In this document: positions 1,365-7,326 of the stretch, one piece after another
How the letters are laid out: every line of letters begins with the position of its first letter
Numbering within the stretch: position 1 is the stretch's first letter
From: Eledone cirrhosa
Taxonomy: Eukaryota
Direction: 5' to 3'
Length of the DNA: 64,000 nt
NCBI GenBank assembly: GCA_964016885.1
Contig: OZ024741.1
Span: forward strand, 235,042,001 to 235,106,000
Position numbers and translations under genes: made by a program
Notes under the pieces: model-generated
Database searches by the model: none
Told to the model about the DNA's origin: nothing
The model's input: the letters and a program-made list of their open reading frames with translations, nothing else

Positions 1365-1846
1365 TATCAAAACGATATGGTTTCATAAGTGTAATATAAT
1401 TAACTGAAAAACTTCGGTTAAACGAAATTATCCATGCAATTATAATTGATCAGCCCAAAACACCCTCCCGATGTGTTCACAATCTAAAAAACAAAAGAAC
1501 AAAACAGTAGTAAGTTAAGTCCAATAAATCCTATTTGCTGAAATGTTTGGAAAATATATACGATGCATGCAAATGGAATTAAATCTTGTCTTTAAAGTCA
1601 ACCCATAAAAACAATGGTTATATTTCGGCCTCGATAGGACTCATCAATGAAACAACATATTTTACTCAACAGGCATCCGCGAGGAGAGATGGTACAGACC
1701 AGTTCCTGTCAAATGTATGTATGTATGTATGTATGTATGTATGTATGTATGTATGTATGTATGTATGTATGTATATATGTATATGTATGTATGTATGTAT
1801 GTATGTGTGTATGTATGTTTGTATGTATGTGTGTATGTATGTATGT

Positions 1847-2430
1847 CAGGTCACCAGTTGGTGCTACTGGTAACATGTATCCCAGTACAACCTGTCTTAT
1901 GGTCGGGTCGTTGGCGACTAAACTGGCAACCCCCACCAAGGTTCTTGGTGAGGAGGGTGCCTTTGGACATCCTGCAGGACTAAAAACAAAACCTGTCTTA
2001 AGAGTCAATGGCCATCCAAAATCACCGGGAGAGATGACCCCTTAGCCTTTGTCAAGGCAGAATTCTAGGAGAAGGAAAACTCTGATATAACACCTGCAGC
2101 TCTGATGGTATCCAATGATGTTGACTTGTTCTTCTTTTTGGTAAATATCATCTTGGTTAAGAGAGTGGGACTGGCTTTGTGCAGTGCCTTTGCTCACTAT
2201 AAAAGCTTCACGGCACATGCATTGCTTTATATCTGGAGATCTCTCTGCACTTGTCGTCACATGGTACCATGGACCCAGCACTATGTGTCAATAATTGTCA
2301 CAAATGTAGTGTTTGTACCAGAGTTTTCAAGTCGCTGGCTGGACTAAAAAGTCACACTCGTTCAGCCCATCGGTAGGGGTTCTCCTGGATATAAAGTAGT
2401 GGCCGTACTCGAAAACGAGTTGGCAGCCAC
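1847..2430 (+). mobile_element. Short non-autonomous RTE-dependent retroelement, copy A
   Basis: Flanked by (TATG)n. The 5' part CAGGTCAC...CTAAACTGGCAACCCC and the CTAGGAGAAGG motif are shared with other copies. The 3' end TGGCCGTACTCGAAAACGAG..GGCAGCCA matches the RTE LINE 3' end at ~5942-5975. Confidence 0.75.
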
Positions 2431-2498
2431 TATGTATGTATGTATGTATGTATGTATGTATGTATGTATGTATGTATGTATGTATGTATGTATGTATA

Positions 2499-2980
2499 TG
2501 CGCGGGGACATAGAAATAGTCGCGCTGGACACCCGATCGCGCGGTTAAACCACTGGGCGTGAAGGACCCCTAGGATTTGTCGGAGCATTCTTCTAGGAGA
2601 AGGCAACTCAGGAAACTGGGATAACTCCGATATAAAACCTGCGGCTCAGTAGTTACCGATGATGCTGATCTTTTCTTCTTTTCGGGTTATAGTTGTTGTC
2701 GCTCAGAGAGTGGGATTGGCTCGGTGCACAGTCTTTCCTCACTTTTAAAAACATCTTCACTCACAGGCATTGCACGATAGAATTAATTAATAATTGTTTC
2801 TACTTTAGGCACAAGGCCAGCAATTACCCAGTGCATTACTGGTACTTTATTTTATCGACCCTGTAAGGATGAAAGGCAAAGTTAACCTCGGCGGGATTTG
2901 AACTAATTAGAATTAATTAATAATGATTAATAATGGTATATGGTGCAATGGCCATACTCGATAACGAGGGGGCAGCCATC
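2499..2980 (+). mobile_element. Short non-autonomous RTE-dependent element, copy B (5'-truncated, with nested partial S1 SINE)
   Basis: Closely matches 6322-6672. The nested minus-strand SINE 2795-2907 has TSD TAGAATTAATTAATAAT (2778-2794 and 2908-2924). It ends GGCAGCCATC(ATGT)n. Confidence 0.75.
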
Positions 2981-3000
2981 ATGTATGTATGTATGTATGT

Positions 3001-5975: not shown

Positions 5976-5998
5976 TGTATGTATGTATGTATGTATGT

Positions 5999-6672
5999 CG
6001 GGTCACTCTTGAGTGCTACTGGTAACATGTAACCCAGTACAACCTGTTGCATCGTCGGGTCGTCGGCGACTAAACCGGCAACCCCACCAAGTTTACTTGG
6101 TGAGGAGGGTGATTTTGGACACCCTGCAGGACTAAAAAAACAAAACCTGACAAAGGGCGGAAGAATTCATAAGAGTCAGCGGCCATCCAAAAATGTGTAA
6201 ATATGTATATACATGTATGCATGTGTATATATGTGTATATGTATATATGTATATACATATATACATGTGTATGTATATGCGCATGTATATATGTATATAC
6301 ATATATACATGTGTATGTATATGCGCGGGGAAATAGAAATAATCGGGCTGTACACCCGATCGCGTGGTTAAACCACTGGGTGTGAAGGACCCCTAGCCTT
6401 TGTCAGGGCATTCTTCTAGGAGAAGGCAACTCAGGAAACTGGAGTAACTCTGATATAAAACCTGCGGCTCAGTAGTTACTGATGATGTTGATCTTTTCTT
6501 CTTTTCGGGTTATAGCTACTGTCGCTCAGAGAGTGGGATTGGTTCAGTGCACAGTCTTTCCTCACTTTAAAATATATCTTCACGCACAGGCATTGCATGA
6601 TAGAATTAATTGATAATTATCAATAATGTTATATCGTGCAATGGCCATACTCGATAACGAGGGGGCAGCCAT
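5999..6672 (+). mobile_element. Short non-autonomous RTE-dependent element, copy C (internal TATG/TA microsatellite ~6200-6321)
   Basis: Same 5' module as copies A and D. The 3' end TCGTGCAATGGCCATACTCGATAACGAGGGGGCAGCCATC is identical to the RTE LINE end. Confidence 0.75.
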
Positions 6673-6688
6673 CACATATGTATGTATG

Positions 6689-7216
6689 TCAGGTCACTCT
6701 TGAGTGCTACTGGTAACATGTAACCCAGTACAACTTGTCTCATGGTCGGGTCGTCGGTGACTAAACTGGCAACTCCACCAAGCTTGCTTGGTGAGGGGGG
6801 GTCATATTTGGACACCCAGTGGGATGAAATACAAGACCCGGCGAAGGGCGGAGGAAATCAGCAGGGTCAACGGCCATCCAAATAGTAATTTTTTTTTATT
6901 CATCTGGGAGTGAAAGTCCCCAGTTATTGTGACAACACCTTTCTAAGAGTGGGAAACTCTGCAAAAAAAAACCTGCGGCTTCGGAAGCATCCGATGATGT
7001 TGACCAGTTCTCCTTTTCGGGTAGTGTTTTTGATGCTCAGAGGGTGGCATTGGTCGAGTGCAAGGCCTTTCCTCACTTAAAAAAACCTTCAAAGCAGAGG
7101 CATTGCTTGTTCAGGTTATGTTACAGGTTCATATGGCTGGCCGTAGCCTAAAAGTGTACCATTTTCTGTAATCTGACAAGCGATTGCAATAATCTTAGCA
7201 GAGTTTGCAGCCATCA
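6689..7216 (+). mobile_element. Short non-autonomous RTE-dependent element, copy D (more diverged)
   Basis: Same 5' module and homologous body; ends GCAGCCATC(ATGT)n. Confidence 0.7.
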
Positions 7217-7326
7217 TGTATGTATGTAGGGTTGTATGTATGTGTGCATGTATGTATATTTGTTTATATATATATATATATTCTTCTGAGTTTTGGCTTG
7301 TTCTGGCCGTTAATGCTTCTTGTCAA

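Follow-up and report, generated by a model that had tools for sequence, protein, structure and literature searches.

RTE retroposons stacked in a TA/TATG repeat of Eledone cirrhosa, with a candidate exonuclease-resistant-RNA-like head on their short derivatives

Architecture of the train

The window analyzed here is a 64,000-nt stretch of the Eledone cirrhosa genome (GenBank assembly GCA_964016885.1, contig OZ024741.1, positions 235,042,001 to 235,106,000, forward strand). Between positions 1713 and 7257 it carries five retroposons on the plus strand, one long interspersed nuclear element (LINE) of the RTE clade and four short elements, in the order A-B-RTE-C-D, with TATG-type tracts between and flanking them. 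Elements A, C, and D begin with a head whose first ~60 nt resemble the exonuclease-resistant RNAs (xrRNAs) of flaviviruses. We explain the locus by stacked insertions into the repeat together with an xrRNA-like head that would trim read-through RNA to unit length, a reading to which we give a probability of roughly 0.6. An earlier note on this DNA had described the order, the strand, and the tracts, all as recovered here by six tract calls (1713–1846, 2431–2497, 2981–3001, 5975–5998, about 6674–6688, and 7216–7257). The features of the train are listed below (UTR, untranslated region; TRF, Tandem Repeats Finder; P1–P3, helices; PK2, second pseudoknot).

1713–1841, +: pre-existing (TATG)n-type array, the insertion target (TRF, 34 copies; family-wide flank statistics)
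1842–2430, +: element A, full-length bipartite non-autonomous RTE derivative (alignment, genome counts)
1842–1901, +: head of A, predicted class-1a-like xrRNA (Rfam RF01415 below cut-off, descriptor, pair counts, 5′ boundary); predicted parts are G1845/U1846, P1 1847–1851 with 1890–1894, P2 1852–1863, lone C1864, P3 1865–1870 with 1882–1887, C1888, and PK2 loop 1874–1877 with 1898–1901
1902–2018, +: second part of the A head, a stem with a CGACTAAA loop and a further hairpin (conserved head alignment)
2019–2240, +: RTE 5′ UTR domain of A, ~70% identical to the autonomous RTE 5′ UTR (sequence comparison)
about 2220–2240, +: 5′ arm of a long-range stem in A, closing the 5′ UTR domain
2381–2430, +: 3′ arm of that stem and tail hairpin
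2431–2497, +: (TATG)17 spacer, target repeat plus duplication (TRF)
2498–2980, +: element B, 5′-truncated copy of the long C subfamily (91% to C 326–623)
2778–2924, +: nested unrelated repeat (about 2795–2907) within 17-bp direct repeats, inside B
3002–5974, +: broken, 5′-truncated RTE LINE with a microsatellite-rich 3′ UTR and a 40-nt tail (94%–97% to other copies)
5994–6673, +: element C, with xrRNA-like head (G5997), TA/TG tract 6196–6326, RTE 5′ UTR domain, and RTE tail
6591–6643, +: 5′/3′ stem of C (fold z −5.2 for 6585–6675)
6685–7215, +: element D, an older derivative with the same head (G6688), an RTE 5′ UTR domain, its own 5′/3′ stem, and a different tail
7216–7257, +: degenerate TATG tract at the end of the train (TRF)

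The 3′ end that B, C, and the RTE were said to share is indeed common to them (38–40 terminal bases identical). The A tail matches it at 26 of 30 positions, and D has its last nine bases alone in common with it (GCAGCCATC) and lacks the CTCG/CGAG stem. Neither a tRNA gene nor a B box was found in A–D, in agreement with the earlier note; a tRNA-derived short interspersed nuclear element (SINE) at 1078–1350 (+), taken for comparison, has both an A box (1090) and a B box (1135). A SINE or tRNA/RNA polymerase III (Pol III) origin of the heads was ruled out, there being no tRNA gene, no Pol III boxes, and no small-RNA head.

Element B had been described as beginning exactly where C has an internal TATG tract. 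The start is right, with B aligning to C from position 326 (91%), and the tract is not what had been claimed, being a mixed TA/TG repeat (6196–6326) that is impure as TATG. This alignment makes B a member of the long C subfamily that lost its 5′ part up to the internal TA/TG tract; copies with the body of B that do have a head exist elsewhere in the genome (loci L007, L012, and L024). The unrelated ~113-bp repeat nested in B lies between direct repeats of 17 bp (2778–2794 and 2908–2924), has about 30 further matches in the window and a diverged piece in the leader of the active RTE, and served as our control family.

The LINE of the window starts at residue 253 (it spans 253–1181 of the intact open reading frame [ORF]), has at least two frameshifts and nine stops, and retains the end of the endonuclease, the reverse transcriptase (RT), and C2H2 fingers. 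An intact copy (L037) encodes 1181 aa with an endonuclease (PF03372), RT (PF00078), and C2H2 fingers. No second long ORF accompanies this single apurinic-type endonuclease (APE)–RT ORF in the RTE leader, and there is no ORF1; relatives of the ORF at 46%–63% identity are abundant. Our assignment to the RTE clade is based on this architecture, a motif in the 5′ UTR, and protein motifs that we take to be those of the clade. Exact-match counts in the 3.0-Gb genome gave 4,053 copies of the RTE/B/C tail, 23,534 A tails, 9,429 A heads, and 769 copies of the end of the LINE 5′ UTR.

Aligning the short elements to the RTE 5′ UTR, as the earlier note had suggested, did reveal a match. The bodies of B and C correspond to the 3′ part of the autonomous RTE 5′ UTR (~90% identity), with a tail identity of 100%, and those of A and D correspond to it at 69%–76%. 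An older family, E (~345 nt), shares the head, here with a 6-bp PK2; its tail is a different one, and its flanks are mostly unique. Its sequence CTATGGGTTAAATAG has 15 bases in common with the RTE-like 23-mer motif printed by Kojima (2018; PMC5786205). A profile of the downstream 5′ UTR domain found 18 of 36 RTE relatives at E ≤ 2. With bodies from the RTE 5′ UTR and an RTE tail, the short elements are, on sequence comparison, no SINEs; they fit that paper's category of bipartite non-autonomous RTE derivatives, resembling Bov-A, RTESINE, and RTE-N in combining an RTE 5′ UTR domain with a short 3′ tail and in having neither an ORF nor a tRNA head. They differ in that the available part of the paper names neither 5′/3′ pairing nor an xrRNA for bipartite RTEs, and in that the derivatives here retain a head while the sampled active LINE has another leader. 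An internally deleted RTE (L042/L001), in which the 5′ UTR end is fused to the last third of the ORF, is a possible intermediate on the way to bipartite forms.

Insertion into pre-existing repeats

The earlier note had the elements target a TATG repeat and the 5′ end of B joined through TATG microhomology. We sampled the first 140 loci (one contig, C1; found via tails), which gave 133 distinct A copies with both flanks, and scored the 20 bases 5′ of each junction as TA- or TATG-type (background 4%–5% per strand). Such a repeat precedes 48 of 56 full-length and 50 of 77 truncated copies, and its orientation is almost uniform (TATG 83 vs. CATA 1). On a looser measure, a target-type flank is present in 4/70 cases of the control repeat and in 8.5% of random DNA. 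The preference is strong and non-absolute, seven of the 56 full-length copies having no 5′ repeat. It extends to the LINE, which is truncated at many points and is repeat-preceded at 26 of 30 5′ junctions (scored by eye), and to the whole genome, where 5,021 of the 9,429 heads continue seamlessly into at least 11 alternating bases. Truncated starts keep the phase of the repeat for at least three bases in 29/77 cases (12% expected), in keeping with a join by microhomology.

Target duplications of at least 9 bp flank 65 of the 133 copies (31.9 in shuffled pairings, maximum 41), and 11 are diagnostic (1.1 shuffled, maximum 5). In 24 of 25 informative cases, a T precedes the duplication, which starts AT(G/A)T, so that the site reads T^ATRT. 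The start at the A of TA is shared with the Tn-TA signature of RTE elements (Bov-B, Sauria SINE), a weak signature, and tail-like flanking repeats are described as rare for RTEs; Bov-B, unlike the family described here, is rarely flanked by repeats resembling its tail (PMC13295347).

Further, the earlier note took TATG to be the element's own tail, so that an element that templates (TATG)n and targets that tail would manufacture microsatellite. The 28 of 78 same-strand neighbors that lie within 25 bp of the previous tail would suit this model, as would the 10–20 bp of repeat that each duplication adds and the microsatellites that RTE tails create elsewhere (PMC2887409). The element itself, however, ends in GCAGCCAC/TC followed by at most a few CAT/CAC units, and it is these units that form the slippage repeats. 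What follows the end is ATGT in 72/133 copies and ATAT in 45/133, with site-specific bases of the 5′ flank duplicated directly after it. On either side the repeat is long (medians 62 and 54 bp), and flank lengths gave no asymmetry as a sign of one-sided recognition (26 vs. 30 of 56). Long repeats on both sides and copied 5′-flank bases identify the repeat as the target, to which an insertion adds its duplication only; family E, with the head, another tail, and mostly unique flanks, also speaks against the model. As a maker of microsatellites it is largely refuted, and we consider it very unlikely. The family inserts, in one orientation, into pre-existing TA/TATG repeats, of which it is a tenant and no builder.

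Same-orientation tandem arrays are frequent, as had been anticipated. In a set of 226 tails, the next member across a repeat spacer lies on the same strand 78 times and on the opposite strand four times; the set was chosen around family copies, so the fraction is no genome estimate. Among 99 listed A tails, 15 gaps are shorter than 2.5 kb (1.1 expected), 14 of them between same-strand copies. Both orders were seen among trains, which gave no direction of growth. Local tandem or segmental duplication could also line up elements on one strand, and some heads do form tandem satellites elsewhere. Each unit of the train, however, has a genome-wide family of its own, whose dispersed copies it resembles more closely than it does its neighbors (A is 92%–96% identical to family mates and 68%–70% to the C and D bodies). 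The earlier note had already doubted this origin, and we put its probability near zero. Very probably the train arose by independent insertions on one strand, in which an RTE LINE and headed, non-coding elements derived from it entered a TA/TATG repeat that was already there.

Oriented, repeat-specific insertion is known from microsatellite-specific LINEs (Dong, R1/Tx1 members, Togen; PMC2887409, PMC4640811), and the likeness is to the Dong type. RTE elements are described as lacking sequence specificity (PMC2887409), and R1 and Tx1 are the only groups for which APE-type specificity is listed (PMC4640811); here, by contrast, an RTE prefers alternating TA/TG arrays, strongly and not absolutely. 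No microsatellite-specific RTE was found described in the literature searched, and a report of active RTEs in octopus does not mention microsatellites in its available part (PMC12988792).

The xrRNA-like head and the long-range 5′/3′ stem

An Rfam scan placed the flavivirus xrRNA family RF01415 at the very 5′ end of A (23.5 bits, E 0.11). It is the sole match of the D head (21 bits, E 0.077), gave 17.7 and 14.9 bits with two family E heads, and is the best or only Rfam match for the A, D, and E heads. A genome-wide search with RF01415 reported three matches (64 of 216,717 candidates were scored), and all three are this head. We also coded the features of class-1a xrRNAs as a descriptor, from the available parts of four papers (PMC8374639, PMC4829329, PMC12081666, PMC8078501). 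A, C, and D fit the descriptor, as do 10 of 11 flavivirus-like loci, against five of 64 other viral and two of 35 prokaryote pattern matches. It found nine places in 6 Mb of simulated sequence, and none once P1 had to start with C(A/G)GG; a microsatellite at window position 45119 and a site inside the ORF of L219 are false positives.

The pairs of the P1-P2-P3 three-way junction are possible in A, C, D, E, and in two distant relatives of the RTE, L239 and L230. In 19 aligned heads, 92.6% of cells pair (94%–100% in the P1-P2-P3 helices), against 19%–41% when partners are slid. The bases of a U-A-U triple (a 5′ U with the second P3 pair) are invariant in all 19 rows, which is a matter of sequence compatibility only, the triple being assigned after viral loci and what we take to be the structure numbering. 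A first pseudoknot (PK1), a 5′ G with a junction C, is G-C in 19/19 rows. PK2 measures 4 bp in the A, C, and D families, six in E, five in L239, and four, with other letters, in L230; the window copies of A and C have one PK2 wobble or mismatch each. P2 occurs in four pairing versions (A; C/D; E; L239). The lone C between P2 and P3 is invariant as well (19/19 rows, and L230); a lone unpaired C at this place defines subclass 1a (PMC8374639, PMC12081666). By sequence comparison, the opening ~60 nt of these three elements (A, C, and D) have every sequence-testable feature of class 1a. The second module of the head (window 1902–2018; L239:190–260) has a CGACTAAA-loop stem that possibly pairs upstream, and its hairpin has compensatory changes between A, E, and L239.

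The 5′ boundary of the elements also falls where such a structure would set it. In 2,358 of the 9,429 A heads the phase of the flanking repeat is lost 5 nt before P1 (7 nt before it in 138), as it is in 16 of 77 sampled heads (next class, four). In mosquito-borne flaviviruses, Xrn1 halts 5–6 nt before the base of P1 (PMC5760640), a distance equal to that of the element boundary, 5–6 nt before P1, if the RNA end is read from DNA copies. Of the first 100 boundaries listed, 90 have TA and 10 have TG as terminal bases, as if these came from each donor's flank.

Among 70 RTE sequences from metagenomes, 42 of which include upstream sequence, L239 has a whole head 375 nt before the ORF match, and in L230 the knot, whose P3 and linker resemble those of viruses, lies about 1 kb upstream. 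P2, P3, and PK2 of L239 are changed and still pair, PK2 of L230 has other letters in the same register, and in both relatives P3 and PK2 change compensatorily. A model built from the retroposon heads alone finds L230 (E 9e-6) and the viral loci L207 (E 0.003) and L333 (E 0.08). Two relatives (L266 and L241) have the second half of the head alone. In a quick-method tree of 40 relatives, head-bearing rows are scattered (five changes, four of them forced); most contigs are perhaps 5′-incomplete and L037 is labeled via derivative C, so we claim no order of events. Class-1a-like motifs with a U-A first P3 pair were also seen in two IMG/VR contigs of 4,255 and 3,725 nt (L291:151; L294:151 and 498), one at the 3′ end of its contig and one in two copies. 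A high-depth contig of 1,061 nt from another organism matches head part 1862–1925 within other flanks, hinting at a further headed element.

A second structure would join the two ends of the RNA. Where the 5′ UTR domain ends, its bases can pair with those that open the tail; in the LINE, 11 bases are exactly complementary across 3.9 kb. The letters of this stem differ in A, C, and D, and the arms of each element are still complementary. Cognate duplexes reach −18 to −26 kcal/mol, against mostly −8 to −12 for cross-family pairs. In seven relatives (two nearly identical), pairing anchored on the motif favors the element's own 3′ end (−23.5 vs. −17.6; permutation P = 0.0002). No description of 5′/3′ pairing in RTE RNA was found in the literature searched.

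Several results weigh against the overall reading. All Rfam scores of the heads (14.9–29.6 bits) lie well below the cut-off of 54.5, as does one of two real flavivirus loci scored (27.3 bits; the other reached 58.2); the general xrRNA model RF03547 does not match the heads, and L239 has no Rfam xrRNA match at E ≤ 10. The search patterns were shaped after the match had been seen. Covariation in the 19-row alignment is weak (16–47 of 500 shuffles as high, 340/500 for pair types), because the core hardly varies. The three-way junction is not recovered by energy folding of A, C, D, or L239 (z +0.4 to +1.25), nor of the viral locus L341; of the sequences folded, the family E copy L193 alone gives it. 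Conservation in family E fades beyond position −4. The knot occurs in two of the 70 relatives, with the second half in two more, and the single copy of L230 has C at the PK1 position where G is expected. The active RTE lacks the ~190 nt with which A, C, and D begin (0 of 30 sampled from the 769), and 10 of these 30 start sharply at another leader; headless and sharp-ended, the active RTE indicates that another 5′-end mechanism operates in the family. As for the stem, the D 5′ arm pairs with the A 3′ arm at −19.1 kcal/mol, a site within the ORF rivals the RTE arm, and unanchored pairing in 18 relatives is no better than in shuffles. Finally, no duplication was found for 37 of the 133 A copies. 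The leader of the active RTE (L031:1880–3090; L036:2028–3150) is ~1.2 kb long, microsatellite-rich with pieces of repeats, and sharp at its start; it has no Rfam match and no known ribozyme.

The same evidence can be read in two other ways. LINE 5′ ends usually drive transcription (PMC5786205), and the head might serve as a promoter for RNA polymerase II, internal to the element, or as an RNA fold that binds protein, with its xrRNA likeness fossil or convergent. A fixed start 5–6 nt before P1 would give an equally sharp boundary, and a core conserved in sequence with little covariation, next to a headless active RTE with a sharp start of its own, would fit a promoter. Such a head leaves unexplained, however, why unpaired tertiary positions, lone C, PK2 register, and halt distance all match class 1a, and why PK2 of L230 changed its letters and kept its register; we hold this to be unlikely. 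Alternatively, the head could be a new or very divergent self-cleaving ribozyme that cuts 5–6 nt before P1, which would agree with its rich structure and its second pseudoknot-like module; ribozymes at RTE 5′ ends are established (PMC5786205, PMC8501958). The A, D, E, and L239 heads, however, match no ribozyme family at E ≤ 10, and the 5′ terminal bases, which lie outside any helix, vary (TG in 10 of the first 100). By inspection, their helix order is unlike the nested double pseudoknot that we take to be the topology of hepatitis delta virus (HDV) ribozymes. We regard a ribozyme as less probable still than a promoter. The head probably functions as an xrRNA, as predicted from these comparisons, and we file it provisionally as xrRNA-like and not as a member of class 1a.

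Other sequences in and beyond the train were noted in passing. Tandem copies of the family E head recur at periods of about 59, 95, and 102–107 bp (L153, L181–L187; contigs C15, C17, C24, and C26), in arrays that resemble tandem xrRNAs or a retroposon-derived satellite. Downstream of the train, 7317–7370 (+), with a similar core near 8581–8610, is hammerhead-like (Rfam Hammerhead_3, 22.3 bits, E 0.55) and is probably a Penelope-like or retrozyme repeat. A near-perfect inverted repeat of ~110 bp flanked by (TA)n tracts (7639–7752) looks like a miniature inverted-repeat transposable element or a Penelope-like element, and (TGG)n arrays of kilobase size with a 17-bp minisatellite occupy 10249–11884, 13360–18476, and 20730–21754.

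Proposed mechanism and meaning

In the explanation that we prefer, stacked insertion with an xrRNA-like head, the headed elements, which have no Pol III boxes, would be transcribed by host read-through. A 5′-3′ exonuclease (Xrn1/Xrn2) would then trim the read-through RNA and halt at the knot, leaving RNA of unit length, and the 5′/3′ stem and tail hairpin may protect and present its 3′ end. RNA closed by this stem could be the unit recognized by the ORF protein, which would account for the retention of both ends by RTE derivatives. The RTE endonuclease would nick TA in the alternating repeat, with priming aided by AU(G/A)U at the RNA 3′ end, and pairing of the RNA with the primer may add to the site specificity. 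With repeat left on either side of each insertion, the site would be hit again, building trains.

The resemblance to the subclass 1a xrRNAs of flaviviruses (MVEV, ZIKV, WNV; RF01415, RF03547; PMC8374639, PMC12081666, PMC5760640) takes in a G-U 5′ strand, a 5-bp P1, the P2 hairpin, the lone C, an A-U at position 2 of P3, a two-base C-N linker, a loop-to-downstream PK2 of 3–7 bp, a 5′ end 5–6 nt before P1, and occurrence in tandem copies. In contrast, the head opens a host retroposon, the viral structure lies in a viral 3′ UTR, and two core pairs are U-A for C-G (the P3 pair of L230 is C-G again). No match to a flavivirus-type P4, dumbbell, or CRE was found next to the head. That the likeness reflects shared descent, in either direction, with a true class-1a xrRNA, a structure so far known from flavivirus 3′ UTRs alone, carving the 5′ end of an RTE RNA closed by a 5′/3′ stem, seems to us an even bet.

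Ribozymes define the 5′ ends of R2 and of the RTE element Perere-3 (HDV-like in R2/RTE/Ingi, twister variants in Perere-3; PMC8501958). Like these, the headed elements have a structured RNA at their exact 5′ end and would be released from a host co-transcript; unlike them, they would be released by stalling of a host exonuclease, with no self-cleavage and no ribozyme match. In the available parts of the sources, xrRNAs are characterized only in viruses and whether cellular RNAs contain them is a question expressly left open (PMC8374639, section 7), and a 2025 paper says that none has been identified in cellular RNAs (PMC12081666). No retroposon xrRNA was found in the literature searched, on which Repbase entries and supplements, including the Kojima alignments, may bear. 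What appears to be new is an xrRNA-like head on thousands of short copies that would likely set the RNA start.

For the RTE family itself, we add a preference for microsatellites, which the available parts of the cited papers describe for other clades only. The cause of RTEs yielding bipartite forms was left open (PMC5786205), and closure by the stem offers a testable reason for such derivatives; trimming at the head offers a mechanism for retroposons that lack both promoter and ribozyme. The head provides a 60-nt candidate cellular xrRNA with natural variants. If the reading is true, the genome contains well over ten thousand copies of what would be a first xrRNA in cellular RNA, and LINE 5′ ends would be set by a third means besides promoters and ribozymes.

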